A stretch of DNA of 22,463 nt. Source: Candidatus Omnitrophota bacterium. Lineage in GTDB: Bacteria > Omnitrophota > Omnitrophia > Omnitrophales > Aquincolibacteriaceae. How positions within the stretch are numbered: the stretch's first letter is position 1; every line of letters begins with the position of its first letter. The notes below the pieces were generated by a model. The model searched no databases. It saw nothing but the letters and a program-made list of their open reading frames with translations, and had not been told where the DNA came from. Location of the stretch: assembly GCA_043803685.1 (NCBI GenBank), contig JAZDJU010000012.1:1-22463 (forward strand), read 5' to 3'. A program made the translations under genes and the position numbers. This document shows, in pieces, positions 1 through 18,527 of the stretch.

Positions 1-1700
1 GAATGGGGTCTTGACCTTTAACGCGGCCTATATCAACGGAGTGGTGTACGCCTGGGGCGCGGACAAAGGCGAGAACGGCCTGACGGATCCCAATAGCAAA
101 GCCTATTGGCATTCGAGCGCGGAGACCGGTAAGAATTCGATAGCGAATTCCTCGATGAGTGACAGCAACATGAAAAATCTTGATGTGGTCAAGAGCGGCA
201 CGGCGGCAGACGCGCAAAAGATTGGATACGATTTTAGCGGGACTGCTTTTGCGAGCATGAACACGACGGATCAGAATGCGTTGGGCCAATTCCTTGCGAC
301 GTATGGGATCGGCGGGATGAGGCTGGCGGGGACGTATGTGTACGATGTCAATGGCACGCAGATCGGATTCGGGAATGCGGAAATGGTGAATGGGGTCTTG
401 ACCTTTACTCATGCTTATATCAACGGGGTAGTGTATGCCTATGCGAATTTTAATACGGATGTGGCTGGGGCTTCGGAACGGTGGATTCAGATTGGAAATG
501 GCGACGTGAAGAGCGTTGAGGCGTATAGCGCGAGCGTTGATTTGCCGGGGGGGGGTACGGCCTTGGGAGTTTACATGAATGTATTCACGGGGGCGGCGGC
601 CATGCTGAGCGTTGCTGATCAAGCCGCTCTCGGAGCTTTCATGGGTATGTACGGGATCAACGGCGTGAAACAGGCCGGAGTTGGTTTTGTGTTTGACGCG
701 GCTGGGACCCAGATAGGTATGATCGAGATAAAGGGGTGGAGCAACGGTGTCCCTGTCATTGGTGAGGCTGCCTACATCAACGGAGTGGTGTATGGATGGA
801 GTAGCAAGAAAGGTGTTTTCCAGATTGCGGATTCTTCGCAGTGGCACAACACTACTGGAAAAGAGGGTGAGGCAGTTGTTCTGGATCAAGATACCCGCAA
901 GAAGGTGGCTAATTATGCGATGGATATCATAGGCTTTAGACATGACGATGGGACGAGTTTTAATGCTGCCGAGACATTAGCCGTCGGTAATTTTATGGCG
1001 GCAATGGGGTTAAACGGTCTCATTCAGGCGGGGAAGACCGCTCTGTATTTGGACGGGAAGTTCGTGGGGACCGGGGTGGTGCAATGGGCTAACGGTAGTG
1101 CGTGGATCAAAGTCGCTTCCATTAATGGCGTGATATATGCGTGGAGCGCTGAGTTGTATAAGGGCCGAGGGACGGGCGAATCGTCTTTTCATCAGAAAGT
1201 CAATCCGTCTGACGTGACGATGATCTTTGGCGAAAAAGGTGCAATTAACATTGTCGATTCGAACAACAAACAAATAGCAGATTATGCGAAAGAAGTGACG
1301 GGATTTAATATCGGGGATGGATTTAAATGGAGCACTTCTGAAACAACGACGATCGGGAACTTCATGGCCGGATTGGGATTGAACGGTCTGGTCCAGACCG
1401 GAATGGCTGCGCTTTATTTGGGCGGGGAGACTGGGAAGCTCGTCGGAGTTGGGATGATGACGACGAGCTATTTTTCATCCTTACAGATCGATGTTGCCAA
1501 CGTTGGTGGAGTGGTGTATGGCTGGAGCAGTGAGGCGAAAACTTTTCAGATCGCCAATCCATCCCTCTGGACAAGCGTGAAGACCGCCGAGGGATTTGTG
1601 GCCAAAGATGGAACGACCTTTACATCTTCCGAGACGTTAACGGTCGGTAATTTCATGGCAGGTCTCGGATTGGGGGGATTGACTCAGGCCGCCGGAACAT
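1..1700 (+). repeat. About five degenerate ~115-130 aa tandem repeats in the giant protein
   Basis: Recurring motifs YINGVVYAW / YINGVVYAY / YINGVVYGW / SINGVIYAW / NVGGVVYGW alternate with LGQFLATYGIGG / LGAFMGMYGING / VGNFMAAMGLNG / IGNFMAGLGLNG / VGNFMAGLGLGG. Exact 20-nt DNA repeat gaatggggtcttgaccttta at 1-20 and 388-407. Confidence 0.9.
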
Positions 1701-4700: not shown

Positions 4701-7700
4701 AAGTGAGAGACGCTGAGGCGGAGCAAACTCCCGAGGAATTGACAGAGGCAGAATCGGATCGATCGGCGCAGAAAAATTTTGATTCCGTGAGAGAACGATT
4801 GTCGGGTGCTGTTCAAGCCCTGGTGATGATCGGCGGGCGTTATGCGGCTACCCATGGAGATCTCACTTCCGAAGGACTCAGGGCCAACCGGGCGACGGGA
4901 CCTCCAGCTTCAGTCACGGCGGTAGAAAATTCTCTGAGTCTGCTATTGGGTGATATTTTAAGTAAGGCCGAAGGCGAAAATGGAGTTGCCGCGGATCGTA
5001 TTCTTGTCGCAAACCTCGCATGGCTTAATCAATCCTTCTCCAGTCAGATCGCTGCTTTAAATCTTCAGCTTGATAAGGCTAAAGGCCTGCATGCCGCGGA
5101 CCGGATCCTCTACGGGCTTTCCATTTCTCAGTCTTCATTGCGGATCGTTTCAACGCTGTATGCTCAAAAAACAGGCGCACGTCAGAAGACCGATTCCTCT
5201 CAGGATGGCGATACCACGAGCGTTGCCGAGCTTGAAAAAGAATCCGATGAGATCCTGCGGGTCCTCGGGAGTTCCCGCAGTACGGGTTCCCGGCTCAACC
5301 GGGATATGCGCCTCCACGAGCGCGCTTTCCGGGCTAACCAGAATGAAACTCGTGTTCCAGCAGGCCGCTTGAATCAGTTGGTTGCCTCCGTCCAATCCGC
5401 TTTCATCAATTCGCTTCTCGGTAAGTTTATTTTTGAAAAAACGCAATGGGGCGTCGCGCAAGTCCTCCGGGCGGTTGCTGAGGAGGGACGTGAACGCTCC
5501 CAGGAAATGTTGATCACGGCCCTTCAGAAGCATTCCAAGTGGGGGGAGGTTTCTAAGGAACTTCGCGATAGGGTTTCCGCCTGGCAGGAAGACCAAAAAA
5601 CAGGCGCCAAGGCTATCGATCCCGAACTTTTGTTGGCCATCTATAAAGATGTGGCAGGGAAAGCTATATTTACCGAATTAAAATTGGTACCGAAGCTCAA
5701 GGCGAAGTTCTTTGACCTGATGTTGCTTTTTGAGGGTACTGTTCAATCGATCCAGGATCGCGCTACCGAGATCGGAGCCCAATTGGAATTAGCGAAGCGT
5801 CTTGACGGTGTGACCGGCGAGAAAGCTCGTGCAGAAGCCATCCAAGAAGTTTGTAGGGCTTGGCAGGCCGAATTCCAGAAGCGCATCGATAAAGAAGGTC
5901 TTACGAAGCCTCTTCGTAATGAGGCTTTGGCTTTCTACAGTGCGGCGATCGCTGCCACTAAAGGCGATAAAGGCTGGGCAGATTCTCAGGGGAATTTCCG
6001 GTTGCATGACGAGCAGATCATGGCCGCTTTGGTCATGAATTATGGCTGGAATATCGCGGAGCTTGCCACCGGTGAAGGAAAGACCACGATTGGCTTTTTG
6101 TCAGCCGTCGTGAATGGCCTGACAGGAAACGGCTCTTTTATTGTCACGACGCAGGACATGGCGGCGGCGGATGGTTATATCAGCAATACCACCGTGGCGA
6201 ATATGCTGGGTATTTCAGTCGGTCTTGTTCAGAAGAACGACTATGAGCGCGATGCGAACAAAAATGCCGAGGTCTTTAAGGACGAGAAGGGCAAGTCATT
6301 TATCCGGAAGAAGGGCGCTGATATGACCTCGGAACAAAAACGCTCCGAGTATCACAAACAAATTACCTATGTGAGCACCCAAAACTGGGCCTTTGACACC
6401 CAGAACGACATTCTTGAGACCAAGGAGAACGACCCCGGGAAAAAGATCATTGACCGCGATTTCAAGAAGGTCTCCGTGATCATTGACGAGATCGATAGCG
6501 TTCTGATCGATCAGGCGATGACCTCCTTTATCCGTTCGTCAGGACAGGGGGAGGCCAAAGAGGAGGACAAGGATTTGCGTTTGGCGTTTGCCCGGATCGT
6601 GGGGAATGTTGACGTTGCAAACGAAGGAGATGAATTCAAGCTCGCCGTAGGTCAATTTTTGATCGTGGACGGCGAGGCGGTACGGCCGCTTGTGCCTAAT
6701 TTCCAAGCGGATGCCATAAAAGATCCCACAGGCCGCATGGCTCAGGCGAACGAATCCGGCATCGCGAAAGCTGTAAAGCGTCTTGCGGCGATGCTGAGTG
6801 AAGGAAATATCTCGCCGGAACTTTTCGACCGTCTTGTCACCCCCGAAACGAAGAAGGGGAAGATGGGGCTGACCCTGACGAAAGAAGGGAAAGATCTCTT
6901 GAGCGACGCGGTCCAGGCCCAGCATCTTTATGCCGAGGGCCGTCAGTACCGCCGCGAGAACAATGAGATCCTTCTGGTCGCAAAAGACACGGGTGTCACG
7001 CAGGAAGGCCAGCGCCTGAATCGTCTCCATCAGGCGATCGAAGCTAAGGAATATTTGCTGGATCAGGAAAGGATTAAAAATAACTTGGAAGTCGAAAATC
7101 CGGTGACGATCCATGAGATGGTGGTCCGCGGGGAGAGCCGGACGACTTCAAGCGTGACGGCGCGTGACGTGTTGCGGCAATATGGCCGTGTTTCAGGAAT
7201 GACCGGGACGGCTTCATACGGCCAGGCGGAAAAATTGTTTGACAAGATGTATGGCTTAAAAGTCCAGACAGTCCCGACCCACAGCATTAGCCGCCGCGTG
7301 GATCATCCTATGCAGTTCATGAACTCCCGGGAGCGTTTTGAGAGGGTCGCGGAGCTTGTGATCGAGGCTATTGCGGCGGGAAGACCTGTCCTTATCAACG
7401 CTCAGACCATGGAGGAAAGCCGCGCGATCGAAGCAGAGCTCGACATCATCTTAAAACGAGAGGGGATCGTAGCTAAGGACGGGATACGAGTCTTGAATGC
7501 GGCTAATGAGCTGGAGTACGACTGGATGAAAGATAGTGCCGGAAAGCCAGGCGTTATTACTATTGCCACGAACATCGCGGGGCGTGGTACGGACATTGGG
7601 CTGGGTCGAAAAATGACCATAGCTCACTTTGACGAGATGTTGAAGCGAGGAGCAATAGATCAGGCAGCTTATGCGCGTTATGTCGAGGCTAAAGATGGAA

Positions 7701-10700
7701 AACCTACGCTTACCCCAGAGGGTAAGGATTATGATAAAAACAGAATTGACTCCGTAGGCGGGCTGCGTCAGATCAATTATGGAGTGAATGATTCGCTGAG
7801 AATTGATATGCAAGCCAGCGGCCGCGCGGGTCGTATGGGAGCGGCAGGGGAATCGTTCACTCTTGTCGCGACCGACGAGGCTAGCTCCGATTACACCTTT
7901 ATTCAGCGCGGATTGATGTCCGGCAATCGTGTCCAGCAGGCCATTGCCAAGGTTGCGATGGCGCGTCTTAACGATCCCTTCACGGAAGGCGGTCGCTTTT
8001 TTGCCAAGTGGTTCTTGAGCAGTGGATTGAAGGGTGTGGATCTTTCCGAAGTAAAAACGATCGGGGAATGGGCCTATCGCATTGCCCAGCGCAATGTCGA
8101 GATCCAGAACGCCAAGTCCTTGTTCGAAGCGGCGCGGCGCGGGGATCGTTTGTTCACAGGGCAATTGCTTGTGAAGCCCATCTTTGATTACCTCCAGGAA
8201 AAGATCCGGACCGAAGTCCGGTCTCAATATAAAGGGGGAGTGCCCGAAGCCATCTCCACCCGCGTGAATGAGGTTTTCAATAGTTTCAAGGAGCCCTATA
8301 CCGTTGAAGAGCTGAAAGAAGACCTTGATGCCGGTTTTGTTTCAAAAGAAGATTTCTCAAAGTACGCGCTTGAGGTGGAGGATCTGTCGGGGGTAAAGAC
8401 GTTCGTGTTCACAGATGCGGGCGTAGCTTTCGCGGCTACTCAAAAAGACTCTTTAGAACGATTAGGTAATCTTCTGGATAGGAAATTTGGAATCCGGTTG
8501 AATTTTGAGGAGCTGGGCAAGGTCAACATGCAGGCGCTGGAAACGGCGGTGGCTCAGGAACTTATGTATCATTATGCTTCGTCGGCCATGGAAGAGCGGC
8601 TAAGCGAGATCCGTGGAGACTTCTTCAAGGAGATCCAGAAGGAAGGTCCGAAAGCCACGAGCCGTTTTGCGTGGCTCGCCGAGCAACGATATACCAAGAT
8701 GTTCACCAAAGCGTTGATGAGCATGGCCGAGCGCGGGCCGGGCGTGATCCGTAACATGGATCTCAGCGGCGAGAAACTCAATGATTATGTGAATAATGCC
8801 ATCACCTCACGTGAAGACACGAAAGAGAAGGAAGTTGAGAAAGCTGCGCGGGTTAAAGACGCTGAAAAGAGTGAAGAGAAAAATGAAGGATTTCTTGGGG
8901 CCTATCTGACACGGTTAGCCGATGTCGTGGAAGCCGCAAAGAAAGCAGAGGAGCGTGGCGAGTTTCAGTTGGAAGCTGAAGCGAAGGCGAAAGTTGCGTT
9001 GAAGGAGAAAGTTGCGTTGTGGAGGGCTGCCTTGGGGATCGGCGTCACCCTGCAACGGACATTCCGGGATTCGGCCGCAGTGGAACAGTCGCTTACGCGT
9101 CAGGCGGAGCAGCAGCAGATCACGATTGATGCGGCGGTCCTTGCGAGGGCAGCGGCTGCTGCGAAGGATGGTTCAGCTCAAGCCCAAGCGCATGTGCAAG
9201 CGTTGAATGAGCAAATGAACGCGCGACGCGAAGCTGTGATCGCGCGTTTGCGGAAAGGGGAGATCCAGGCCGCGATCATCCAGACCGATAAAGGTTTTGA
9301 AGTCTTTGTCATGCCTGTCAGCGGTGACCCCAAACCAGTAGTGCTTCAGAAGGTTACTCCTGAATATTACAGTGCGATCAAGGCTCTTGAGCGATCCGAC
9401 GGAAAAACAACTTACACGCACAATGGCAAGGAACTGCCCGTCAAGGTGTCCTCAGCCGGTGTGATCGAGATCGGGGAGGTGCATTATCCCGCGGATGCCA
9501 CGATCGGCAAAGGCACGATCCTGATCAATTCAGAACTGGAAGGAACTAAACCCACTATTGGGGTCGGGGCTTACATCGAAGGAAGCGTGCTCAATAATGC
9601 GACGATCGGTGATCACGCGGTCATTAAGGTGACGCGTGCGAATCAATCGATCGATGCCGGCGCCTATGCAAAGCTTGACCATGTGTATGGGGATAAGATT
9701 ACCGTCGGAGATAATGGGACGGTGGTCTATTCAGCCCGTGAAACGATCAAGGTCCCAAGTGGCGCAGCCCGGGTCGGTGATTTTAAAGAAATGGGCATCT
9801 TTGGCTTCAAGGCCAGTGATGCCGAACGGACCGTCATCTCTAGTGACACTTACGTGGCAGACCAGAGAGGGTTGTCGGTTTTCGTTCAGGATGTGGTGGG
9901 TAAGGTGCTTGGGAAGTGGCGTTTTGAGCGCCTCAAGAAATTCTTCGAGCGTCTTTCTGAGGAACTCGCGAAAAGGACCGATACGCAACTCCTCCGTGCG
10001 GATGTCAAGGCGCGTCGTGTCGGCGGTGCCCCCGATGAGCCGGAGGTCGCGGGGCAGGCAAAGCAGCAGTTGAGCGTGGAGGAGGTTCTCGCTCATGCGG
10101 AAGCGATGAAGATCATGGCTTCTAACGCGAATGAAGCCAGGGATATTTTAGGTAAACTCTCGCCGCGCCAGAAGCTTATTGTGATCGCCATCATAGCCTT
10201 CCAAGGAAGGCGTGATGCAAACGGCCAACCGCTTTTGACCGAGGAAAATCTGAAATATTTCGAGGGATCGGAAATTCTTACGGAAAGGGTTAAGGACATG
10301 CCGGGAGTGTGGGGTAAGCTTAAAGACCACAATTTGCCAAATGTTCCTTTCATCTATATCAAGCTTTCCGGCTCGGCCTTGAAGTTATTGCAAGCAAAGA
10401 ACATTCAAAGCGAAACAGCCATTGGCTTTAGGACTTCGCCTTATGACATTGCGATTCTTGGCCAATTTCTCTCGGGGAGTGCAGCGCCGATACTGAAGGA
10501 AGTGTGGAATGATTTACTGCCGTTTATTGCGGCTGGCTCCATTACCGTGAATGGCCCTATGGCGAAGGAAAACAAGGAGAAGGGCTTTGAAATGGTCGCC
10601 CACGAATATGGTCATCATATTGATGCGGGTAAAAACATGACTGAATCGTCCAGTAGGGAAAAACTGGCTGCGCAAGGCTTCCAGGTCGATCACCCAGCTC

Positions 10701-12562
10701 TGACGAAGCTGCTCGCGGATCTTGATGCCATTAAAGCGCCGTATGTCTCTCGCTCCACGGAGGATGTCAACCTTATTGAGGAACCCGCGCAATATCGTTT
10801 GCAGAATCTGGGTCAAAACGGAGAATTCCCTGGCTTTGGGAAAGATCGCGGGACTGTTTTGACCTATGCTTATCAAGACGATGGAAAAACGCCGCATGCG
10901 AAAACTCCGGAACATCTTGAAAAATTAAATGCTGTGATGACGGTGATCGAACGTCTCGACCGCATTTTCCCGGGGCGCGTTGTAACCCATATGATCCGAC
11001 GTGCGCGGAGCGTGGGAGAGATCCTGGGCTGGACCAAGGGAGCGGACGGTTCTACTTTAACGGATGAAGAATTGTTCGATCGTCATTTGCCGCACTTCAC
11101 AAAAGAAGAGATCTCGCGCGCCAAAGCGGCCGGATATGACACTCGGCAGATCGCGCTCATGGAAATGGATGAAGAAGCCCGGGAGCATGGATATATTCGC
11201 CATGATCTTGCTGATCCGACGCCCGAAAATATCCAAAAGTGGGCGAACAATTGGGCCGTTCAGAAAGTGACCTATCTCTGGAACGAAGGCGGCGAGAAGG
11301 AGCAGCAGCTCATCCGCCAGTGGCTGAGCAGTAGCGATGCCGTTCTTCGGACGGCAACGGAAGAAGCGATGAAGGCCTTAAGTATCACGGAAAGCATGTT
11401 GCCTGCGAAGACTGCGCAAACGGAAGCTGTTACAACAGTGGCTCCTGTCGACTCGAAGGCTTCTTTCACAAGCTTGGGGTTTGGGCCGCAGTGGGCGGAG
11501 TGGTTCTCTGATAGTGCGGTCCAATTCAGCAAGGCGGCCGATAGCACCTCAAGGGAATCGGCCGTCCATACGGCCATTAGCGATCTGGCTGGGAAATTGT
11601 TTAATCTTGATACGGCAGGTCTGAATATCAATTTCAGTTCGTCGAATACGGATCCGAATCTTAGAGGGAAAGTGGGTTATTTCTCGAACGGGACCATCAC
11701 CATAAATCGCAGCAGGCTGAGCGAGATCGAAAGCGCCGAGATGACGAATCAGGCTGAGCTTGAAAAATATTGCAATATGGTCATGGATATGACGGCGGTC
11801 CTGGTGCATGAAGCCGAGCATGCTAAGGAGCCCGCGAACATGGAAGGCGTTCGGTCTGAAGTGCGGGCTTATGCGGAGACCGCGGAAGCGATGAGAGCAT
11901 TGGATGGGCTTAATCATGGCTCACGCTATGCGCGGCAGATCGAGTTGATCGATCTGTTGTTGAGCGTGCTTGCGGATGGGCGACGCCTTGATACGAAGGT
12001 TCCAGCTGATGTGTTGCAGCTTGTGGAGCAGATCGTGTCAGGCAGCGCCGACCCCAGGCTTGGTTTGGAATCACTGCTGAATCGTTTGAATGCCCAGATC
12101 TATGCCCTTGGGAATTCAGGGTTGAATGCACAACGCAATGTAAAGATCCTTAAAGATGCAGCGGAGGTGAAGTCGCTGATCGATTCTAAGTTGAAGAAGG
12201 ATGCCGCCAACCTCATTGAGCACCATGTTTTCGTGACTTCTGAGGCAGATGCGAACGTTGCGGAAATGCGTTCCGAGATCGCTCGTTTACAATCGTTGGG
12301 TTTCATGGTCTTCAAGTTCGACGATGCCGTGATCCGCGGTATATTCGGTAATAAAGCGGATCCTTATGATGCCATCTATCGTCTTACGGAACTTGCCGCC
12401 GCGCTGGGACAGACTCAATTCGTGAAATTAATGGCGCAATATGAGGTCCGTCCCCAGGTCGACGGCAAGTTCTATTCGATAGCCGCTTGTTTTAGCAGCC
12501 CCGTCATTAAAGGCTTGATCACGGAGCTCGTCAGCCACCAGCAAGTCGCCTCCGCGGCATAA
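2..12562 (+). CDS. Giant multidomain membrane-associated protein, 5'-partial (repeats, TM block, SecA-like ATPase, hexapeptide beta-helix, two zincin motifs)
   Basis: Uninterrupted frame. The TTG at 11 is not a real start: the frame reads NGVLTFN from base 2 and matches an internal repeat (NGVLTFT at 389). Stop TAA at 12560-12562. Domain motifs are listed separately. Confidence 0.95.
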   Translation, partial: NGVLTFNAAYINGVVYAWGADKGENGLTDPNSKAYWHSSAETGKNSIANSSMSDSNMKNLDVVKSGTAADAQKIGYDFSGTAFASMNTTDQNALGQFLATYGIGGMRLAGTYVYDVNGTQIGFGNAEMVNGVLTFTHAYINGVVYAYANFNTDVAGASERWIQIGNGDVKSVEAYSASVDLPGGGTALGVYMNVFTGAAAMLSVADQAALGAFMGMYGINGVKQAGVGFVFDAAGTQIGMIEIKGWSNGVPVIGEAAYINGVVYGWSSKKGVFQIADSSQWHNTTGKEGEAVVLDQDTRKKVANYAMDIIGFRHDDGTSFNAAETLAVGNFMAAMGLNGLIQAGKTALYLDGKFVGTGVVQWANGSAWIKVASINGVIYAWSAELYKGRGTGESSFHQKVNPSDVTMIFGEKGAINIVDSNNKQIADYAKEVTGFNIGDGFKWSTSETTTIGNFMAGLGLNGLVQTGMAALYLGGETGKLVGVGMMTTSYFSSLQIDVANVGGVVYGWSSEAKTFQIANPSLWTSVKTAEGFVAKDGTTFTSSETLTVGNFMAGLGLGGLTQAAGTYYQRTAVELGAKAFFFVQDAAARSFNYLMDKYGVGFALGAAVGAAIIVAGALVLAGIKCILVGGVVALGVKMSTVGGLLIASGAFLGSSVAIGCYYADVYAAQIKAGETWWNACRIAGQGTWLRAIQDIAFSWVAVSVINMIFAMGVASFAAGAANQVASWGWVLRTGSWLTERFGAGTGGILLSRAEVTLTGRAAQLWGSQASSVAYSGLRLTSVTLSGWNAFAIHFASGFTLRTIIPTILNIGVKMGFTLSIGANVLALLGITYGTPEALSRERLDGGWNSGRGNFLGVWDNITRGFVLMVASMQSMTGLESMMQNMVTTEHWIFTVGFAVFGFIPTYSSSILSGMAGMAGTWAGKWIGLPAGSAATGGIFEMVGLVGEGAIISLATFQLMSLIGRSFVQAWEKSGLAALYEEAFKENVLQSSLLAWVPDQYSESMVELFDVARGRKTHFSAEQNQFSQQLSQAVTASGLLTAGFSSVGGMLTKALGQFNAGNIAAAQKIVSSAIQSLNGQATGVAQFDVALSSLQSMAENSMAVIGRLDVALSNPESALAKLYDVPTLNTMLGLAKNNPFMDFGNRVDVQGGNLRGLAAAAAIQLVATGGFDATYNGKSAGEFLGSFGLNKEQVSHIRTINVDFAAKTISSEDLSNFTRDLAMSSGVLVRDVRGVPQISTQLFINVVMANFMGTLSAEAFRSSGVEKNALAAFEAMTPEARTKFQNALRGRSEMADGEALMFLMLGSQLATTPKDTAKVKALLQAFGLTSSSARGIAGSLGIMSSSARSILRMVEDGEEGANTRVGEFLIEKAGAFQMKDLWKFEGVLSAFGRVDAQDYGKFFSDLGLQGAIPSVILDMLTKDSVFADTLISGILDSLMVSGKRPTEAGLRDAVFFSALQYAKDAPEAASIVKAMLGEKGEKLGKGLERLTGVEGRANYELKAVQAIAASIAKESVAFALPLLEAAVQGVAALSFNVEALVASGLVTQDEIDAFLSELNRPQPVTRSEVRDAEAEQTPEELTEAESDRSAQKNFDSVRERLSGAVQALVMIGGRYAATHGDLTSEGLRANRATGPPASVTAVENSLSLLLGDILSKAEGENGVAADRILVANLAWLNQSFSSQIAALNLQLDKAKGLHAADRILYGLSISQSSLRIVSTLYAQKTGARQKTDSSQDGDTTSVAELEKESDEILRVLGSSRSTGSRLNRDMRLHERAFRANQNETRVPAGRLNQLVASVQSAFINSLLGKFIFEKTQWGVAQVLRAVAEEGRERSQEMLITALQKHSKWGEVSKELRDRVSAWQEDQKTGAKAIDPELLLAIYKDVAGKAIFTELKLVPKLKAKFFDLMLLFEGTVQSIQDRATEIGAQLELAKRLDGVTGEKARAEAIQEVCRAWQAEFQKRIDKEGLTKPLRNEALAFYSAAIAATKGDKGWADSQGNFRLHDEQIMAALVMNYGWNIAELATGEGKTTIGFLSAVVNGLTGNGSFIVTTQDMAAADGYISNTTVANMLGISVGLVQKNDYERDANKNAEVFKDEKGKSFIRKKGADMTSEQKRSEYHKQITYVSTQNWAFDTQNDILETKENDPGKKIIDRDFKKVSVIIDEIDSVLIDQAMTSFIRSSGQGEAKEEDKDLRLAFARIVGNVDVANEGDEFKLAVGQFLIVDGEAVRPLVPNFQADAIKDPTGRMAQANESGIAKAVKRLAAMLSEGNISPELFDRLVTPETKKGKMGLTLTKEGKDLLSDAVQAQHLYAEGRQYRRENNEILLVAKDTGVTQEGQRLNRLHQAIEAKEYLLDQERIKNNLEVENPVTIHEMVVRGESRTTSSVTARDVLRQYGRVSGMTGTASYGQAEKLFDKMYGLKVQTVPTHSISRRVDHPMQFMNSRERFERVAELVIEAIAAGRPVLINAQTMEESRAIEAELDIILKREGIVAKDGIRVLNAANELEYDWMKDSAGKPGVITIATNIAGRGTDIGLGRKMTIAHFDEMLKRGAIDQAAYARYVEAKDGKPTLTPEGKDYDKNRIDSVGGLRQINYGVNDSLRIDMQASGRAGRMGAAGESFTLVATDEASSDYTFIQRGLMSGNRVQQAIAKVAMARLNDPFTEGGRFFAKWFLSSGLKGVDLSEVKTIGEWAYRIAQRNVEIQNAKSLFEAARRGDRLFTGQLLVKPIFDYLQEKIRTEVRSQYKGGVPEAISTRVNEVFNSFKEPYTVEELKEDLDAGFVSKEDFSKYALEVEDLSGVKTFVFTDAGVAFAATQKDSLERLGNLLDRKFGIRLNFEELGKVNMQALETAVAQELMYHYASSAMEERLSEIRGDFFKEIQKEGPKATSRFAWLAEQRYTKMFTKALMSMAERGPGVIRNMDLSGEKLNDYVNNAITSREDTKEKEVEKAARVKDAEKSEEKNEGFLGAYLTRLADVVEAAKKAEERGEFQLEAEAKAKVALKEKVALWRAALGIGVTLQRTFRDSAAVEQSLTRQAEQQQITIDAAVLARAAAAAKDGSAQAQAHVQALNEQMNARREAVIARLRKGEIQAAIIQTDKGFEVFVMPVSGDPKPVVLQKVTPEYYSAIKALERSDGKTTYTHNGKELPVKVSSAGVIEIGEVHYPADATIGKGTILINSELEGTKPTIGVGAYIEGSVLNNATIGDHAVIKVTRANQSIDAGAYAKLDHVYGDKITVGDNGTVVYSARETIKVPSGAARVGDFKEMGIFGFKASDAERTVISSDTYVADQRGLSVFVQDVVGKVLGKWRFERLKKFFERLSEELAKRTDTQLLRADVKARRVGGAPDEPEVAGQAKQQLSVEEVLAHAEAMKIMASNANEARDILGKLSPRQKLIVIAIIAFQGRRDANGQPLLTEENLKYFEGSEILTERVKDMPGVWGKLKDHNLPNVPFIYIKLSGSALKLLQAKNIQSETAIGFRTSPYDIAILGQFLSGSAAPILKEVWNDLLPFIAAGSITVNGPMAKENKEKGFEMVAHEYGHHIDAGKNMTESSSREKLAAQGFQVDHPALTKLLADLDAIKAPYVSRSTEDVNLIEEPAQYRLQNLGQNGEFPGFGKDRGTVLTYAYQDDGKTPHAKTPEHLEKLNAVMTVIERLDRIFPGRVVTHMIRRARSVGEILGWTKGADGSTLTDEELFDRHLPHFTKEEISRAKAAGYDTRQIALMEMDEEAREHGYIRHDLADPTPENIQKWANNWAVQKVTYLWNEGGEKEQQLIRQWLSSSDAVLRTATEEAMKALSITESMLPAKTAQTEAVTTVAPVDSKASFTSLGFGPQWAEWFSDSAVQFSKAADSTSRESAVHTAISDLAGKLFNLDTAGLNINFSSSNTDPNLRGKVGYFSNGTITINRSRLSEIESAEMTNQAELEKYCNMVMDMTAVLVHEAEHAKEPANMEGVRSEVRAYAETAEAMRALDGLNHGSRYARQIELIDLLLSVLADGRRLDTKVPADVLQLVEQIVSGSADPRLGLESLLNRLNAQIYALGNSGLNAQRNVKILKDAAEVKSLIDSKLKKDAANLIEHHVFVTSEADANVAEMRSEIARLQSLGFMVFKFDDAVIRGIFGNKADPYDAIYRLTELAAALGQTQFVKLMAQYEVRPQVDGKFYSIAACFSSPVIKGLITELVSHQQVASAA
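1790..2920 (+). other. Gly/Ala-rich multi-pass hydrophobic (transmembrane) region of the giant protein
   Basis: Long apolar runs such as GVGFALGAAVGAAIIVAGALVLAG, VAVSVINMIFAMGVASFAAG, WIFTVGFAVFGFIP and GAIISLATFQLMSLIG. Boundaries approximate. Confidence 0.8.
5930..8200 (+). other. SecA-like DEAD motor domain (NBD1, preprotein-crosslinking region, NBD2) embedded in the giant protein
   Basis: SecA signature motifs in canonical order: RLHDEQI, IAELATGEGKT (Walker A, ATGEGKT at 6065-6085), VIIDEIDSVLID (Walker B, DEID at 6485), LHQAIEAKE, GMTGTA, VPTH, GRPVLI, VLNA, ITIATNIAGRGTDI, GGL, RIDMQASGRAGRMG (~7800-7840). Boundaries approximate. Confidence 0.95.
9490..9860 (+). other. Hexapeptide-repeat left-handed beta-helix (GlmU/LpxA-type repeats)
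   Basis: ATIGKGTILINS, PTIGVGAYIEGS, ATIGDHAVIK, ITVGDNGTV, ARVGDF, TVISSDTYV fit the [LIV]-G-x4 periodicity. Confidence 0.75.
10601..10800 (+). other. Zincin metallopeptidase motif 1 (HEYGH)
   Basis: MVAHEYGHHID with HEYGH at 10601-10615. Candidate third ligand in LIEEPAQY further downstream. Confidence 0.6.
11660..11900 (+). other. Zincin metallopeptidase motif 2 (HEAEH...E)
   Basis: GKVGYFSNGTITINR strands, then AVLVHEAEH (HEAEH at 11807-11821), then SEVRAY with the downstream Glu typical of gluzincin/ImmA-like peptidases. Confidence 0.75.
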
Positions 12563-12609
12563 TTCCACATCTTTTCTCCCGTGTAACTCTTTGCTTATAT
12601 CCTTTCAGG
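12539..12609 (+). repeat. Junction repeat copy 1 (native 3' end of giant gene QQVASAA* plus 50-nt trailer)
   Basis: cagcaagtcgcctccgcggcataattccacatc..., homologous to 13755-13828 and 15659-15688. Confidence 0.9.
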
Positions 12610-12616
12610 CTCTTTA

Positions 12617-12644
12617 TTGACAAGTTATCAATATATGATAACAT
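12617..12644 (+). promoter_or_regulatory. Sigma70-type promoter with embedded palindromic operator
   Basis: TTGACA (12617-12622), 16 bp, TG-n-TAACAT (12639-12644). Perfect inverted repeat GTTATCA-atata-TGATAAC (12624-12642) between the boxes. RBS AGAGGGG before ATG 12662. Confidence 0.8.
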
Positions 12645-12661
12645 TCTTTTAGAGGGGCTTT

Positions 12662-13534
12662 ATGGGGTTTCGTATCAAACAATACGCTAAAGAGCAGGGA
12701 ATGAAATTGGGAGATGTGGCCCAAAAACTTCGGATGCCGCTTTCCAATCTGTCTGCCGTTGCGTCCGGACGACGGAGCGTTTCACTCAGACTTCTCAACA
12801 AGATCGCCAGCGTCTTGAATTGTTCTGTGCCAGAGCTGTTTGAGGTTGAAAAGGCTAAAGATGCCTTTAAAGATACTGAGCTTAACGACAGGGTTTCACA
12901 GATCGAACTCGAGAATTTTACGGGATGCGACAAAGGATGGATCCATCGCCTTACATTTGACCAACAAAAGCATTTTAAGATGGTCCGCGAGGGTGGCGTG
13001 CCGTATGGCGCCAAAGCGGCAGGGGATAAGGACCCTTGGGAGACCTTATTCGAATGTTTCAACCGAAAAGGCGTTGATTATGTTGTGATCGGGATGTCTG
13101 CGATCAATTATTACGCTCGATCAGCCATGGAGACGTTTGGAACGCAAGATTACGATCTTTTCCTGAGGCCTGCCATAGCAAACGCGGTTAAAGCGTTTGA
13201 GATTTTATGCGATTTGGGGTATGAAATGGTCGCTCACGGTAAGGTGGTTTCAAAAAACGATTTAAAGGGGATTCTCAAGAAAAAACGGACGGTTCTTGCG
13301 GTTAATCCAGAGGGCGTTACTTTCGAGCTCCTTTTTTCGGTTTCAGGATTCGTTTTTGAGCAGATGGCCAGTGATCCTTCGATCTTCAGGTCAGGCGGAA
13401 CGGTTATTCGCGTTGCGAAATTGAACAAGCTCTTGGCGTCCAAGGCGGCTGCCGATCGCCCCAAGGACAGGCTTTTTCTTAAGCGGTATAAAATGATCTT
13501 GGAGAATATTGCGCGGAAGAAATTTAAGGATTAA
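12662..13534 (+). CDS. XRE-family HTH fused to a Pol-beta-superfamily nucleotidyltransferase (TA-like)
   Basis: N-terminal GMKLGDVAQKLRMPLSNLSAVASGRRSVSLRLLNKIASVLNCSVPELF is an XRE HTH. C-terminal GVDYVVIGMSA...TQDYDLF...LLASKAAADRPKDRL is an NTase with DxD motif. Confidence 0.85.
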   Translation: MGFRIKQYAKEQGMKLGDVAQKLRMPLSNLSAVASGRRSVSLRLLNKIASVLNCSVPELFEVEKAKDAFKDTELNDRVSQIELENFTGCDKGWIHRLTFDQQKHFKMVREGGVPYGAKAAGDKDPWETLFECFNRKGVDYVVIGMSAINYYARSAMETFGTQDYDLFLRPAIANAVKAFEILCDLGYEMVAHGKVVSKNDLKGILKKKRTVLAVNPEGVTFELLFSVSGFVFEQMASDPSIFRSGGTVIRVAKLNKLLASKAAADRPKDRLFLKRYKMILENIARKKFKD

Positions 13535-13535
13535 A

Positions 13536-13778
13536 ATTTTCTCAGGAACGGCCGTGGATCGGACGTTTGCGGAAAGTGTCAGAGAGATCTTTGCAGTTAC
13601 TCGTCTCGCTTCATGGCTGGGCGTTAGCCAGTTCGAGGCCTTGATGCAGGAACATTATGATGTCCGTGGTCGCACCGGTCAGGGCTATCTGTCCGTGAAT
13701 GCGTACCTTAGTAACGAGTTCATCAAATCGCTCCTTAGCGAGATCCTTGCCATCCAGCAAGTCGCCTCCGCCGCGTAA
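13536..13778 (+). pseudogene. Orphan paralogous C-terminal fragment of a giant-type protein (junction repeat copy 2)
   Basis: VTRLASWLGVSQFEALMQEHYDVR...FIKSLLSEILAIQQVASAA aligns with the giant C-terminus LTELAAALGQTQFVKLMAQYEVR...VIKGLITELVSHQQVASAA (26/60 identical by hand). An in-frame GTG at 13554 with AGGA upstream could allow a 74-aa product. Confidence 0.85.
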
Positions 13779-13857
13779 TAATTCCACCTCTCTTCTTCCA
13801 CTCAGCTTTCTGCTTATGTCCGTTGAAGTCTATTTCAGCCAAGAGCTTCTTGTTTTT

Positions 13858-13890
13858 TGGGTGACAATCGTGTACATTATGGGTGACGAT
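13858..13890 (+). promoter_or_regulatory. Putative operator of first Phd-PIN operon
   Basis: Direct repeat TGGGTGACAAT (13858-13868) / TGGGTGACGAT (13880-13890) flanking TGTACA (13871-13876). RBS AAGGAGGT at 13903-13910. Confidence 0.55.
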
Positions 13891-13915
13891 AGACCTACTC
13901 AAAAGGAGGTTGGTT

Positions 13916-14203
13916 ATGCGTTTTATTTCAGTAAGGGATCTGAGGGGGAGGCCGGGGCAGATATGGAAGCAATTAGCCCGTCTCAGGGAGATGGTGCTGA
14001 CGCTGAATGGAAAGCCGATCGCTATTATTTCCAGCACTTCCGAAGAATTTCTTGAGGAGAATCTTGCAGAAGTTCGAAAAGCACGGGCCATGGTTGCGGT
14101 GAGGGCGATCCAGGCGGAATCGGTCCGCAAAGGTCTTGATAAAATGACTCTGGAAGAGATCAATGCGGAGATCCTGGCTGTCCGCAGAGCGCATCGCCGA
14201 TGA
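13916..14203 (+). CDS. Phd/YefM-family antitoxin
   Basis: MRFISVRDLR...EMVLTLNGKPIAII Phd motif. Start reassigned to ATG 13916 by the strong RBS. ATGA overlap with the next gene. Confidence 0.9.
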   Translation: MRFISVRDLRGRPGQIWKQLARLREMVLTLNGKPIAIISSTSEEFLEENLAEVRKARAMVAVRAIQAESVRKGLDKMTLEEINAEILAVRRAHRR

Positions 14204-14691
14204 AGGTTGTTGCGGATACCAACGTTCTGATCTCAGGGCTCCTGACGCCACATGGTCCACCTGCGGAAATCGTCCGCATGGTTCTGAACGGAAATCTTCG
14301 GGTTTGTTATGACCTCAGAATACTGGATGAGTATCGAGAGGTTTTTGCGCGTCCGAAATTCGATATTTCTCATGGGTTGAGCGCCAATCTTTTGGAGCAG
14401 ATCCGTGCGAGCGGTGAATCGGCAAATACTCAGCCATTGTCGCAGCCGCTTTTGGATCCGAGTGACGAGGCGTTTCTTGAAACGGCCATTTCCGGGGGCG
14501 CAGATTGTCTTATTACTGGAAATCTGAAACATTTCCCACCGTCCTGTCGGCAGGGAATGCGGGTCTTATCTCCTCGCGAGTTCCTGGAATTTTACAGAGA
14601 CTGGCAAGCGAACGGTTCCGGCAAGATCCAAAGCCCGTCGGTGGAATACAGGCTGAGGAAAGGCGGAAAAAGAAGGCGATCGCGACACTGA
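14200..14691 (+). CDS. PIN-domain (VapC-like) toxin with basic C-terminal tail
   Basis: MKVVADTNVLISGLL, ILDEYREV, DPSDEAFLETA, ADCLITGNLKHF. Coupled to upstream antitoxin. Confidence 0.92.
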   Translation: MKVVADTNVLISGLLTPHGPPAEIVRMVLNGNLRVCYDLRILDEYREVFARPKFDISHGLSANLLEQIRASGESANTQPLSQPLLDPSDEAFLETAISGGADCLITGNLKHFPPSCRQGMRVLSPREFLEFYRDWQANGSGKIQSPSVEYRLRKGGKRRRSRH

Positions 14692-14764
14692 ACCCGCCCA
14701 GTGGAGGGAGAGTCCGCCTAAGAATCATGGCTTTGTTTTCTTATAGAAAAGGCAGGAGGAGCCC

Positions 14765-15037
14765 ATGCAAATGAATGAAATTAGCGCTTTGAGTCTCAGG
14801 AAGCGATTTGGAGAAATGATGGACCGCGTCCGGCGCGAGAAAGAGCCTTTGATAGTTACCAAGAACGGGCGACCGATGATTGTGATGATGGATATTGAGC
14901 TCTACAGAGCTTCGCAGGAAAACATTCAGGATGAGGCGTTCCTTGAGGCTTATACAGAGGAACGAGTGAAAGAGTTTCTTGCCGAAGATGGTCTCGATAA
15001 GGCGACCGTTGCGGCCCTGCGAAAAGATCCTGCCTGA
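14765..15037 (+). CDS. Phd/YefM-family antitoxin
   Basis: ISALSLRKRFGEMMDRVRREKEPLIVTKNGRPMIVMM. RBS AGGAGG at 14754-14759. Confidence 0.9.
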   Translation: MQMNEISALSLRKRFGEMMDRVRREKEPLIVTKNGRPMIVMMDIELYRASQENIQDEAFLEAYTEERVKEFLAEDGLDKATVAALRKDPA

Positions 15038-15123
15038 TCATGCCCAATTCTCCATCAAAAGATTCCACGGTTAATTGGGCTAGCCCTTGCAACCTTCCGT
15101 CAAAAGAAAATAGATGCTAGGGC

Positions 15124-15561
15124 ATGCGCATCTTCCTTAACGCAAACGTCTTTTTTGCGGGATGTATGTCAAAAGAGGGAGCTTCGGCTTTCGTTCTTGA
15201 ACTTGGCAGGCGAAAGCGAATGGAATTGGTCGCGAGTAAATTAGTACTTCGAGAGGCGGACCGGAACTTGCGCCGGAAGGCGCCGCCAGTCGCTCTCAAG
15301 GCTTTTCACCAGTATCTTCAGCAAGTCAAGATTCGCATCGCTTTAACTCCCAATGGAGAAATGATGAAGCCGTACGAAGGAATGATTGACCCCAAAGATC
15401 TTCCCGTGCTTGTCGCCGCGATTGCGTCCGAAGCTGATTTTTTTCTCACGCTAGATCGCAAACATTTTTTGTCAGCCGGATTAGTTGCGAAGATCAAAAA
15501 ACCGCGCATCCTGGGTCCCGCGGATTTTCTTCGGAATTTTTATCTTAAAGGAAAGATATGA
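15124..15561 (+). CDS. PIN-domain toxin, first catalytic Asp replaced by Asn
   Basis: MRIFLNANVFF (canonical LDANV), VLREADRNL, DPKDLPVLVAA, ADFFLTLDRKHF. Confidence 0.88.
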   Translation: MRIFLNANVFFAGCMSKEGASAFVLELGRRKRMELVASKLVLREADRNLRRKAPPVALKAFHQYLQQVKIRIALTPNGEMMKPYEGMIDPKDLPVLVAAIASEADFFLTLDRKHFLSAGLVAKIKKPRILGPADFLRNFYLKGKI

Positions 15562-15571
15562 AGAAAGGTTG

Positions 15572-15688
15572 GCGTTCAGCAATGCGTTCCTGAACGAGAT
15601 CCTGACCATCCAGCACTTGATTTTCATTTGTAAGAAATGATCGAAAATCAGTGCAATCCAAGTCGCCTCCGCCGCCTAATTTCGCCTC
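15572..15688 (+). repeat. Junction repeat copy 3 (eroded giant-gene 3' end split by a palindromic insertion)
   Basis: Reads AFSNAFLNEILTIQ, then a hairpin insert with an in-frame stop, then IQVASAA* (caagtcgcctccgccgcctaa at 15659-15679). Trailer taatttcgcctc matches copy 2 at 10/12. Confidence 0.85.
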
Positions 15689-15730
15689 CGTAAAGTCTCG
15701 ATTTTTCCACGTTCTAAAAAAAAGTTTATC

Positions 15731-15782
15731 TTGCGAGACAGCGCCTTACAAGTTAAAATCAGACCAGAATTCAGACTAGTCT
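15731..15782 (+). promoter_or_regulatory. Sigma70-type promoter and operator of Phd-RelE operon
   Basis: TTGCGA (15731-15736), 17 bp, TAAAAT (15754-15759). TCAGAC repeats at 15759 and 15771 (12-bp period). Palindrome AGACTAGTCT at 15773-15782. Confidence 0.7.
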
Positions 15783-15812
15783 TAATTTTAATCTACAAGA
15801 AAGGGTGTTCCC

Positions 15813-16091
15813 ATGACGAAAACTCTGCCTCTCTCCGAAGTGAAGGTCAAGCTAAGCGCGATCGTGGCAGGCATTGTGCGCCGGTCCGATGAGGTGATCA
15901 TTACGCGGAATGGCAAGCCGGCTGCGGTCTTGATCAGCGCAGATGAATACGATAGCTGGAAAGAGACCCAGGAGATCAAGCGTGACCCTGATCTTATGCG
16001 ACAGATACGCGAGAGTGAGGAGGCGTATCGAAAAGGTGATTTTAAAGAGTACGCATCCCAAGATCTAGACGAGCTTTTTGGAGGCAGATAA
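15813..16091 (+). CDS. Phd/YefM-family antitoxin
   Basis: KTLPLSEVKVKLSAIV...EVIITRNGKPAAVLISADEYDSWKETQEI, a classic YefM-like sequence. Confidence 0.93.
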   Translation: MTKTLPLSEVKVKLSAIVAGIVRRSDEVIITRNGKPAAVLISADEYDSWKETQEIKRDPDLMRQIRESEEAYRKGDFKEYASQDLDELFGGR

Positions 16092-16439
16092 GTGAAGCTA
16101 ATTTGGCGTGTCTCCGGTTCTCTGAAAGAGCAAGTGAGACATCTTCCGCCTGATTTAAAGTGTCAGGTGCGATTGGCGTTCGACGATATTCAAAAAAGAC
16201 CTGAGGCGGGGAAGCTGCTTTCCGACGAGTTAGTGGGATATCGGAGCTACCGTATCGGAAGATACAGGATTATTTATCGCATTATGGAGGATCGCCTTGT
16301 CCTGGAAGCTGTTGGATCCCGGGCGGATATCTATGAAAGGATTGTGCTTGAGATCGGCCGCGCCAAGATCCGGGAGCGCGCTGCCAGGTATGGCGCCAAA
16401 CCACGAAAACCGGGGCCGCGAGTCGCCGTAGCTGCGTAA
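16092..16439 (+). CDS. RelE/ParE-family toxin with C-terminal extension ending RVAVAA
   Basis: PEAGKLLSDELVGYRSYRIGRYRIIYRI...VGSRADIYE. GTG start abuts the antitoxin stop. Confidence 0.9.
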   Translation: MKLIWRVSGSLKEQVRHLPPDLKCQVRLAFDDIQKRPEAGKLLSDELVGYRSYRIGRYRIIYRIMEDRLVLEAVGSRADIYERIVLEIGRAKIRERAARYGAKPRKPGPRVAVAA

Positions 16440-16468
16440 TGGCGCATAACCCTACGATCTGTTGTCGC

Positions 16469-16516: not shown

Positions 16517-16543
16517 CATTCCAATATTGGGAAGGAGGATTTC

Positions 16544-16798
16544 GTGACAACATTGAGCGCGACGAAGCTTCGAGGTAGTTTGTTTCATGTTCTGAAAAAG
16601 GCGAGTAAGGCTCACGTTCCATTCCTGGTCACCTCGCGCGGAGGGGATGTGGTGATCATTTCTAAGGTCGACTACGAAAACCTTTTGGAGAGCCTCGAGC
16701 TTCTCTCGACGCCTGGGGTTCTCAAAGGAGTGCGTGAGGCGAGGGCTGACGTTAAGGCCGGCCGAACCAAGTCCATGGACGAGGTCTTTGGTTCATGA
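16544..16798 (+). CDS. yefM: YefM/Phd-family antitoxin
   Basis: TLSATKLRGSLFHVL...VVIISKVDYENLLESLELLSTPG. ATGA overlap with the toxin. Confidence 0.85.
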   Translation: MTTLSATKLRGSLFHVLKKASKAHVPFLVTSRGGDVVIISKVDYENLLESLELLSTPGVLKGVREARADVKAGRTKSMDEVFGS

Positions 16799-17058
16799 GT
16801 TCTCCGCTGTATGAAGTGCGGATCACCCGTCGGGCAGAGAAAGATATTCAGACGTTGACGCCAAAGCTACGTGAAAAGCTTAAGGATATCCTGATCGAGG
16901 TGATATCGAAAAATCCATTCGAAGGAAAAAAACTCCTCGGAGATCTTGAAGGAAGTTATTCCTATCGATTGAGTTATCAAGACCGGATCGTTTACAGCAT
17001 TGATAAGCTGAATCGGATCGTTTATCTGGAGCGCGCACGGACCCATTACGGGAACTGA
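16795..17058 (+). CDS. yoeB: Txe/YoeB-like (RelE superfamily) mRNA interferase toxin
   Basis: NPFEGKKLLGDLEGSYSYRLSYQDRIVYSI, with the C-terminal THY motif typical of YoeB. Confidence 0.8.
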   Translation: MSSPLYEVRITRRAEKDIQTLTPKLREKLKDILIEVISKNPFEGKKLLGDLEGSYSYRLSYQDRIVYSIDKLNRIVYLERARTHYGN

Positions 17059-17059
17059 T

Positions 17060-17620
17060 ATGAATTATCCAACAGTCTTTGATCTTCTTGATAATGCTGT
17101 CCAAGAATTGGGCGTCCGCTTAATTCTGATCGGCGGCTTTGCGGTCAATGCCTTTGGTGTTGGGCGGAATACCCAGGATGTCGATTTTTTGATATTGGAA
17201 ACGGATTATCTTAAGCTTAAGGACTTTCTTTTAGCTCAAGGCTATGAAGAAGTGGTTCGCACCGATGTCTTTGCGAAACAGACGGCCAAGGATCGCTATG
17301 CGATGCCCGTCGATTTTTTATTTACCGATCCTCACACATTCGAGATGATCTTCCGGGATAGCGTGGGCACGACGATCTCTGGGCATGCGTTCAAAACGCC
17401 ATCGCTCTTGCATCTGGTCGCTTTAAAACTCCACGCGATTAAAAAGGGTTCGAAGGATCGTGTCTGGAAGGATCTTCCGGATATCATTAATATGGTCATT
17501 GCGAACCGGATTGATACCGACTCTTCCGATTTTATGGAGATTTGCCGCAAGTTTGGTCCGGAGGGGATTCATCAGAGAATTCAAGAGGCAAGCCGCAGAG
17601 GTCCTGATGGAAGATCTTAA
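17060..17620 (+). CDS. Pol-beta-superfamily nucleotidyltransferase (TA-associated type)
   Basis: LILIGGFAVNAFGVGRNTQDVDFLI (GG-x-A and DxD), VDFLF, LVALKLHA, KDLPDI. Same family as the C-terminal domain of 12662-13534. Confidence 0.88.
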   Translation: MNYPTVFDLLDNAVQELGVRLILIGGFAVNAFGVGRNTQDVDFLILETDYLKLKDFLLAQGYEEVVRTDVFAKQTAKDRYAMPVDFLFTDPHTFEMIFRDSVGTTISGHAFKTPSLLHLVALKLHAIKKGSKDRVWKDLPDIINMVIANRIDTDSSDFMEICRKFGPEGIHQRIQEASRRGPDGRS

Positions 17621-18517: not shown

Positions 18518-18527
18518 CGATTTTTCT

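Follow-up and report, generated by a model that had tools for sequence, protein, structure and literature searches.

Copies of a giant gene's conserved 3′ end delimit a toxin–antitoxin cassette array in Omnitrophota

Sedentary chromosomal integrons hold co-oriented cassettes of one or two genes, separated by a repeated site and varying in order, and many of these are toxin–antitoxin (TA) cassettes with promoters of their own. Polymorphic-toxin loci such as those of Rhs and CdiA carry orphan modules, in which a variable toxin tip follows a conserved joint and is itself followed by an immunity gene, and T4-type phages possess promoter-early stem-loop (PeSL) cassettes, reportedly described by Arbiol and colleagues in 2010, whose short repeats flank small genes and serve as portable homology by which these genes are gained, lost and shuffled with no dedicated recombinase. 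The ssrA islands of Dehalococcoides, according to parts of their published description, lie in tandem downstream of their target, are bounded by a 20-bp direct repeat of the gene end and differ in content from strain to strain (McMurdie et al. 2011, PMC3146451). Sixteen of them carry a serine-recombinase module, some islands lack an integration module—read there as cis-mobilizable elements and as accretion—and island size starts at several kb, an amplicon that covers the cargo and part of the module measuring ~7 kbp. In Escherichia coli K-12, element e14 supplies icd with a replacement end, the displaced C-terminal fragment being icdC, and excision recombines the two (Hill et al. 1989, as related in part of PMC13626634). 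Here we describe contig JAZDJU010000012.1 of a Candidatus Omnitrophota bacterium (the whole contig of 22,463 nt, hereafter the window), in which partial copies of the 3′ end of a giant protein gene delimit an array of TA cassettes.

In the window, the 3′ part of the giant gene (2..12562, + strand; 4186 codons, open at the contig start) ends in the 21-nt sequence CAAGTCGCCTCCGCSGCVTAA, encoding QVASAA-stop. This sequence occurred with 0 mismatches at 12542–12562, 13758–13778 and 15659–15679, always on the + strand, just where an original prediction made from the letters alone had seen it recur (ending at 12562, 13778 and 15679). Not one match arose in 100 dinucleotide-preserving shuffles, and a search of the entire assembly, a 2.89-Mb metagenome bin of 133 contigs with 6.6% contamination, returned those three matches alone at ≤2 mismatches (reversed-pattern control, 0). 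The claimed spacings of 1216, 1901 and 760 bp between successive copies were reproduced by a repeat search, in which the last copy appeared at 16419–16448 with 67% identity. This degenerate fourth copy, part of the same claim, is weak taken alone; it gains credence from a genome of another genus (G036), where an unmistakable tail copy of 51 nt occupies the corresponding position behind the orthologous Phd–ParE cassette.

The copies vary in extent and in state. The live tail (copy 1; 12362..12562, +) comprises the last 66 codons and the stop codon, with the 21-nt core at 12542–12562, and encodes the final helix of a 130-residue C-terminal domain. Copy 2 (13560..13778, +; 72 codons plus stop, no plausible start codon) is of a different tail type: its translation (13560–13775) is homologous to the last 68–72 residues of the giant protein (41% identity, E 7e-8; hidden Markov model [HMM] E 1e-20), shows 46% identity to the giant tail of G036 versus 41% to that of its own genome, and lies in an 89-aa open reading frame (ORF) in which a Pfam scan found no family. 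Copies 1 and 2 have 22 of 24 core nucleotides in common (longest identical run, 18 nt) and share ~54 nt beyond the stop codon, the pyrimidine-rich 3′ flank of the live tail (D1, 12563..12616, +) being homologous to that of copy 2 (D2, 13779..13835, +) with a local score of 20 versus 8.8 ± 1.6 in shuffles, a value reached in 0 of 500. Copy 3 (15574..15679, +) retains ~63 nt of tail in total, namely 42 nt that are 81% identical to copy 2 and the core at 15659–15679, interrupted by a 45-nt hairpin-forming insertion (~15614–15660; 13-nt arms at 15613–15625 and 15642–15654) flanked by the short repeat ATCCA. Copy 4 (16413..16439, +) continues the reading frame of a ParE gene, to whose end it is fused (...GPRVAVAA*): the G036 orthologue stops 40 nt before its tail copy, whereas the ParE gene of the window reads through into the decayed one. 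A fully decayed core may also sit at the junction of cassettes A and B described below (GAGTCCGCCTAA, 14710..14721, +), a weak candidate at a place where G036 has a clear core. Judged by their sequence, the tail copies are dead partial copies of giant-gene 3′ ends, with lengths of 21 to 216 nt in the window; across the window and its relatives, they reach 21–240 nt upstream of the stop codon and 0 to ~65 nt downstream.

These copies punctuate a 5-kb island of six self-contained cassettes of toxin–antitoxin type, all on the + strand. Cassette 1 (12617..13534, +) has a promoter-like site (12617–12644) with the palindromic operator TTATCAATATATGATAA (12625–12641), followed by a fusion of an XRE-type helix-turn-helix (HTH_3) with a DUF2204 nucleotidyltransferase (HTH–NTase; 12662–13534). 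With this query, G083 alone among the 65 other family genomes gave a homologue, which seems to be split in two and has no tail copy nearby. Cassette A (13859..14691, +) consists of a direct repeat (GGGTGACAATCG / GGGTGACGATAG, 13859–13892), probably the antitoxin operator, a Phd-like antitoxin gene whose ATG is preceded by a Shine–Dalgarno sequence (13916–14203) and a PIN_3 toxin gene (14200–14691); the same direct repeat is conserved in G009 and G036. The cassette is collinear with the tail, D segment and cassette A1 behind the intact giant gene of G036 (987 nt, 75%). Cassette B (14765..15561, +) pairs a Phd antitoxin (14765–15037) with a PIN_3 toxin (15124–15561), the ParE cassette (15731..16439, +) joins a promoter-like site (15731–15759) to a Phd antitoxin (15813–16091) and a ParE/RelE-family toxin (16092–16439), and the YoeB cassette (16544..17058, +), after which no tail copy stands, encodes a Phd antitoxin (16544–16798) and a YoeB/ParE-like toxin (16795–17058). 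An AbiEii/DUF2204-like nucleotidyltransferase gene (17060..17620, +) forms a conserved island end; genes of this kind are what usually adjoins giant-gene ends in relatives, with homologues directly behind giant-gene tails or arrays in G009, G010, G002 and G017.

Four of these cassettes thus have the composition of type II TA systems—PhdYeFM with PIN_3 (twice), with ParE/RelE and with YoeB—and their toxin activity is predicted. The matches mostly exceeded Pfam or NCBIfam cut-offs, the first Phd-like protein falling below (20.5 of 29.8 bits). As for the promoter and/or operator and the module that were said to follow each copy, a same-strand cassette is there each time and consensus promoters stand at 12617–12644 and 15731–15759, but the number of promoter-like sites in the region was no higher than in shuffles.

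The layout recurs in relatives. The tail domain was detected in 35 of 66 family genomes (E ≤ 0.1); across the order it was present in 32 of 96 genomes (E ≤ 0.01), a second family contributing two of its five genomes and the eight remaining families none of their 25. We tabulated the downstream DNA of 30 giant-gene ends, four of which had <900 nt downstream, after dropping one further match that did not reach the protein end. Orphan tail copies with TA or defence cassettes lay behind six of the 30, in six genomes (G000, G002, G009, G010, G017 and G036; the G017 orphan is weak, E 0.047), and more tail copies were present on contigs without a giant gene (G036 C11 and C8; G003 C201). Giant-gene ends that lack cassettes and are followed by YqeY and a VWA/TPR gene on the other strand carried no orphan. 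G036 held eight copies of a 27-nt core at ≤3 mismatches (control, 0), one of its tail copies was identical over 48/48 nt, and its contigs C61 and C11, overlapping by 120 nt at 100%, join into one ~10-kb array with ten copies: giant gene, A1, two cores 37 nt apart, core, AAA_14, tail, A2, core, B, core, AAA_14, tail, ParE, core, AAA_14, tail. In G010, a 134-nt tandem tail duplication has no cassette between its halves. A metagenome scan with a degenerate 24-nt core yielded three loci, all unrelated chance matches with no tail HMM match and no likeness to the window.

Cassette content and order vary between genomes, and the differences sit at the tail copies. The window reads HTH–NTase / A / B / ParE / YoeB, G009 reads A / PIN_2 / AAA_14 / ParE, G017 reads VapBC / YoeB / ParE, and G036 reads A1 ... 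AAA_14 / A2 / B / AAA_14 / ParE / AAA_14. Relative to G036, the window is without an AAA_14 unit that stands there between two tail copies; relative to G009, it has one extra unit (HTH–NTase plus copy 2) ahead of cassette A; and ParE and YoeB are in reversed order in G017. The order A–B–ParE, with tails at the junctions, is common to G036 and the genus of the window. Identical module content in relatives, which the original prediction had named as speaking against it, was not what we found. All cassettes in the window and its relatives are co-oriented with the giant gene, as expected if units enter through a directional repeat, and the newest-looking of them, the HTH–NTase cassette found in just one of the 65 other family genomes, adjoins the live tail.

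Two cassettes alone exceed rpoB in identity between genomes: a 237-nt piece of cassette A (86%) and an AAA_14/DUF4143 ATPase cassette shared by G009 (L027, 3138–4395) and G036 (L036 reverse complement, 2350–3605), at 85.7% over 1260 nt compared with 81.4% for rpoB. That a cassette should be more alike than rpoB across two genera hints at its horizontal movement. The homology begins 87 nt ahead of the start codon and breaks off ~20 nt short of the stop codon, and the tails that follow are unrelated to each other at the nucleotide level, each resembling the resident giant gene; the tails therefore look target-derived or locally converted. Gene tail and TA module, proposed to be stacked as one unit, thus probably do not travel together. 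Within G036 itself, the four AAA_14 genes have no nucleotide likeness to one another (blastn, no match in 6/6 pairs).

Where do the tails come from? Pieces of five giant proteins (4,186–6,655 aa), used as tblastn queries against eight arrays, gave 14 hits, 12 of them within the last 78 residues and the remaining two at the start of the next tandem giant gene. Fragments thus derive from the extreme 3′ end only, arguing for a tail-specific process. Compared with 30 giant tails, nine of 11 informative orphan fragments best matched the giant gene of their own genome; one G036 orphan was 86% identical to its own giant tail versus 52% to that of a congener, and the 34-nt cores of G036 averaged 91% pairwise identity while the cassettes they follow were 75% alike or without a blastn match. 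Taken together, these patterns argue for live tails and orphans still exchanging sequence. Mosaics break at the core: copies 1 and 2 of the window differ upstream (41% amino-acid identity) and share the core plus 54 nt of flank, and in G009 the upstream part of orphan f2 is nearest to giant gene 2, its core and flank matching giant gene 1 at 29/30 nt. With repeat boundaries that are variable on both sides, homologous exchange fits better than a precise att site. An unrelated hairpin insertion occupies nearly the same core position as that of copy 3 in G009 orphan f2 and G003:C201; just upstream of GTCGCC, within a few bases of it, two insertions have thus occurred independently, a hint that breaks favour this point. 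The 42-nt hairpin of copy 3 (15613–15654) is unique in its genome, ruling it out as a repeated miniature element.

The protein encoded by rpoB of this genome is 90–96% identical to Candidatus Omnitrophota entries. The gene that supplies these ends belongs, with its very long frame and SecA DEAD-like domain in an Omnitrophota genome, to the giant SecA-domain proteins of this phylum: SecA_DEAD (E 1.7e-42) and P-loop_SecA (E 1e-24) matches place the SecA_DEAD / SecA P-loop region at about residues 1948–2623. In passages of two preprints, the SecA domain is the hallmark of giant Omnitrophota proteins (West-Roberts et al. 2023; 2026 preprint 10.64898/2026.06.07.730766). Omnitrophota giant genes rank with the longest known and change very quickly, and descriptions of their neighbourhood have dealt with secretion and sugar-handling genes rather than mobile cassettes. 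Frames of relatives that end in the same tail domain span 5,000 to 39,033 codons. The largest frames ending in or containing it measure 39,033 (G019:C47), 21,902 (G010:C2) and 55,671 codons (G089:C7; tail match weak, E 0.045), and two giant genes of 9,521 and 18,673 codons stand in tandem, 6 kb apart, in G009:C59. Read from the translation, residues 1 to ~560 of the window's fragment (2–1700) consist of ~110-residue repeats (...NGV..F..AYINGVVY.W...), followed by a long hydrophobic stretch that is probably membrane-spanning.

Giant genes are hypervariable, with 25–41% protein identity between genomes whose rpoB genes are 80–82% identical at the DNA level. A search with 733 aa of the giant protein as query returned no relative. 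The 21–34-nt core is nearly the sole patch conserved at the nucleotide level. Its last codons are conserved even at synonymous sites, position −5 Val being GTC in 18 of 21 cases versus 35% in gene bodies, which is a hint only, as the related genomes are non-independent. Each of the 30 giant proteins in the comparison has ...AA or ...SA as its last residues, most commonly Q-(Q/S)-V-A-x-A-A, an ending that we take to resemble ssrA-type C-terminal degrons. A confident model of the C-terminal 130 residues (12170–12562; pLDDT 85.4) shows a small alpha/beta domain whose last element is a long helix; a fold search with it found no Foldseek match at E ≤ 0.001 (best VIA Z 3.9, unconvincing).

The statement that no integrase or attC is visible was borne out by Pfam, IntI-profile and R″/R′-motif searches of the arrays. 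We examined the arrays of the window, G009, G036 (C61, C11 and C8), G017, G010 and G002 for recombinase genes and found no recombinase domain in the ORFs chosen for Pfam scanning (19 in the window, 51 + 41 in relatives); transposase genes or fragments (insertion sequence [IS] families IS21 and IS200-like, and Mu-type) occurred only at the edges of G036 contigs, and 13 stretches elsewhere in the window's genome matched tyrosine recombinases, several per gene. The integron integrase IntI (TIGR02249, 265-bit cut-off) was present in 0 of five genomes (G000, G009, G010, G017 and G036; best score 95.6 bits). A rough motif test for attC-type R″ (RYYYAAC)...R′ (GTTRRRY) pairs in 12563–17700 gave one pair, inside the nucleotidyltransferase gene at 17067 (shuffle mean, 0.8), and the tail with its flank folded no better than shuffles (z −0.5 and −0.8). 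An integron was therefore rejected: there is no IntI, no attC-like box at the junctions and no significant fold, and the cassettes have their own promoters. Rfam returned 0 matches over 12000–22463 (E ≤ 1), with 0 tRNA or tmRNA genes. Also dismissed were the template and variable repeats of a diversity-generating retroelement (the window encodes no reverse transcriptase, and copies 1 and 2 are just 41% identical) and, on the look of the sequence, a Xer/dif site (a dif-like dyad is absent from the core, and tails occur at two loci in some genomes). A perfect palindrome, ACCATTTCACACCCCGGGTGTGTGAAATGGT, recurs in the 6-kb array of G009 (L027, contig C59) at 873–910, 2008–2045, 2915–2952 and 6405–6442, once inside orphan f1. 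This 26-nt palindrome has nine matches in the genome, some overlapping or representing two strands of one place, with four in the array contig (three places); as it also lies at two ordinary intergenic places, it is not array-specific and looks like a repetitive extragenic palindromic (REP)-like or terminator element enriched in the array.

These comparisons support the giant-gene 3′ end as a recurrent recombination junction. The reading we favour, and to which we give an even chance, is that cassettes are gained, lost and shuffled by recombination at this conserved end, most likely homologous recombination. The last ~250 nt of the giant gene would form a recombination hot spot ending in the 21–34-nt core, and the conserved end patch would be where recombination with incoming or neighbouring DNA takes hold. 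DNA would come to lie behind the gene by a crossover inside the tail, which leaves the end of the gene whole and part of the former end downstream of the newcomer. Stacked tail copies, acting as direct repeats, could then allow cassettes to be lost, moved, swapped, transferred and reordered, while gene conversion from the live tail would refresh the copies; TA cassettes would accumulate and persist, being addictive and hard to lose. We infer that recombination at the core both builds and reshuffles the array, that its engine is the homologous recombination of the host with no dedicated recombinase, and that addiction keeps the TA cassettes in place.

Several observations weigh against this reading. 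A fully conserved core of 18–34 nt is short for RecA-type exchange, and the first orphan of an array is unexplained by the proposed mechanism. Twenty-four of the 30 giant-gene ends showed no orphan (with <900 nt of downstream sequence in four of them), and seven of eight further loci with cassette-A homologues had no tail copy in the fetched sequence, so that the cassettes do not depend on tails. Most shared cassettes are 65–77% identical between genomes with rpoB at 80–86%, and the arrays therefore look old and largely inherited. Copy 2 of the window is unlike the resident giant gene, its tail type being absent from the live genes of the genome; giant-gene replacement or loss thus also feeds the array. 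Of the original prediction that the 3′ end is a recurrent recombination or integration site, the recombination part is supported, orphan tails delimiting TA and defence cassettes of differing content behind giant-gene ends; active integration is conjectural, most cassettes being no more alike between genomes than rpoB.

A dedicated enzyme could act instead, encoded elsewhere or on a lost element and using the giant-gene end as attB, with non-autonomous (cis-mobilizable) cassettes stacking up and each leaving an att repeat. Such site-specific accretion is suggested by the architecture, which resembles tandem ssrA islands with their 20-bp repeat and their members without an integration module (parts of PMC3146451) as well as icd/icdC around e14 (part of PMC13626634), and further by the direct co-oriented repeats, the intact target gene, the 48/48-nt identical copy in G036, the tyrosine-recombinase matches elsewhere in the genome and the paired hairpin insertions next to GTCGCC. 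We nevertheless think it unlikely, if a serious rival: the arrays examined contain no recombinase gene and the transposase genes at their edges are ordinary IS fragments, the repeat length is anything but constant on either side, the tail with its flank has no significant fold, and one and the same cassette is followed in two genomes by differing tails, each like that of its host. Slightly less probable still is that the repeats play no recombination role and are passive relics of tandem giant genes, each with its own cassettes, which were deleted save for their last bases. The tandem genes of G009, the start of a next giant gene after the arrays in G010:C19 and G002:C78, the decay of copies with distance (copy 2 > 3 > 4) and the likeness of copy 2 and cassette A to the intact G036 locus would all suit such a history, and the tail type of copy 2 makes it partly true. 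Random deletion end-points, however, would not give 12 fragments that all come from the last ≤78 residues of 4,186–6,655-aa proteins; the adjacent G036 cores and the cassette-less G010 duplication sit badly with it, and at least ten giant genes would have to have been lost in one 10-kb array. Moreover, orphans at junctions common to two genera still match the resident live tail, which requires exchange or a recent origin.

That live tails and orphans appear to exchange sequence, and that copy 2 would give the window's protein a different 68-residue end, also raises the idea of silent spare tails, gene-conversion donors that, as with pilE/pilS, would alter the helix at the C terminus of the giant protein. 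This we regard as very improbable, given that most orphans amount to 7–25 codons from the best-conserved stretch, so that conversion would have no effect, that they always lie flush behind cassette genes and that several are frameshifted or split by a hairpin. An assembly chimera joining giant-gene loci or strains at the repeat, conceivable in a fragmented and partly contaminated metagenome bin, has next to no probability in our view: copies 1 and 2 share too short an identical run (18 nt), the orphans are cut short and flush with cassette genes, and the layout appears in six independently assembled genomes.

Returning to recombination at the giant-gene end, a bolder version of it, which we put forward tentatively and consider doubtful, is that Omnitrophota run an integron-like cassette system without an integron: the conserved final codons of giant surface-protein genes would be the attachment site, TA and defence cassettes would be captured, stacked and reshuffled by an unrecognised recombinase or by homology alone, and the addictive cassettes would protect a deletion-prone giant gene. 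If the giant-gene end is indeed a landing and shuffling site for such cassettes, it would constitute a new way of building accessory-gene arrays in integron-less genomes, and would help in understanding the replacement and stabilisation of giant genes. In main-text passages of the Omnitrophota giant-gene preprints (supplements apart) and in the literature found on Omnitrophota giant genes, toxin–antitoxin systems or integrons, we found neither repeated tails nor TA arrays described downstream of giant genes; the passages of one preprint mention a single flanking antitoxin.

The claim that no described system has this layout was too strong, as comparable ones exist in tandem ssrA islands (PMC3146451) and in icd/icdC around e14 (PMC13626634), insofar as the parts of these papers considered here describe them. 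As in ssrA islands, the 3′ end of a single-copy gene serves as anchor, tandem units are bounded by direct repeats of the gene end and content varies; here, however, the anchor is a giant protein gene, the units measure 0.8–1.9 kb, the arrays have no recombinase and the repeat spans 21–240 nt rather than a fixed 20 bp. Of the features expected of islands that target a gene's 3′ end, the locus shows the direct repeat of that end at the distal boundary and the intact target gene, and lacks an integrase in any unit (among the array ORFs chosen) and a crossover core of constant length. Like e14 in icd, it would involve integration inside the 3′ end of a protein gene with the displaced end fragment kept at the far side, yet e14 is a single 15-kb prophage with its own integrase, whereas here small TA cassettes without an integrase form an array that holds several displaced ends. 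It shares with sedentary integrons a co-oriented TA cassette array, a repeated site between cassettes and an order that differs between relatives, but differs in the absence of IntI (0 of five genomes), in non-hairpin junctions without R″/R′ boxes and in a repeat that is a fragment of coding sequence. Short repeats flank small genes in PeSL cassettes as well, those repeats being phage regulatory modules and not the end of a cellular giant gene. The orphan modules of Rhs and CdiA likewise stack partial 3′ gene copies downstream of a very large gene, with small protective genes in between; here the orphans are the conserved extreme end with no variable C-terminal toxin domain, and their small neighbours form autonomous type II TA pairs and are not cognate immunity genes. 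What is distinct in Omnitrophota is thus a combination: a giant protein gene as anchor, TA and defence units of ~1–2 kb, arrays free of recombinase genes, variable repeat boundaries and concerted evolution with the live end.

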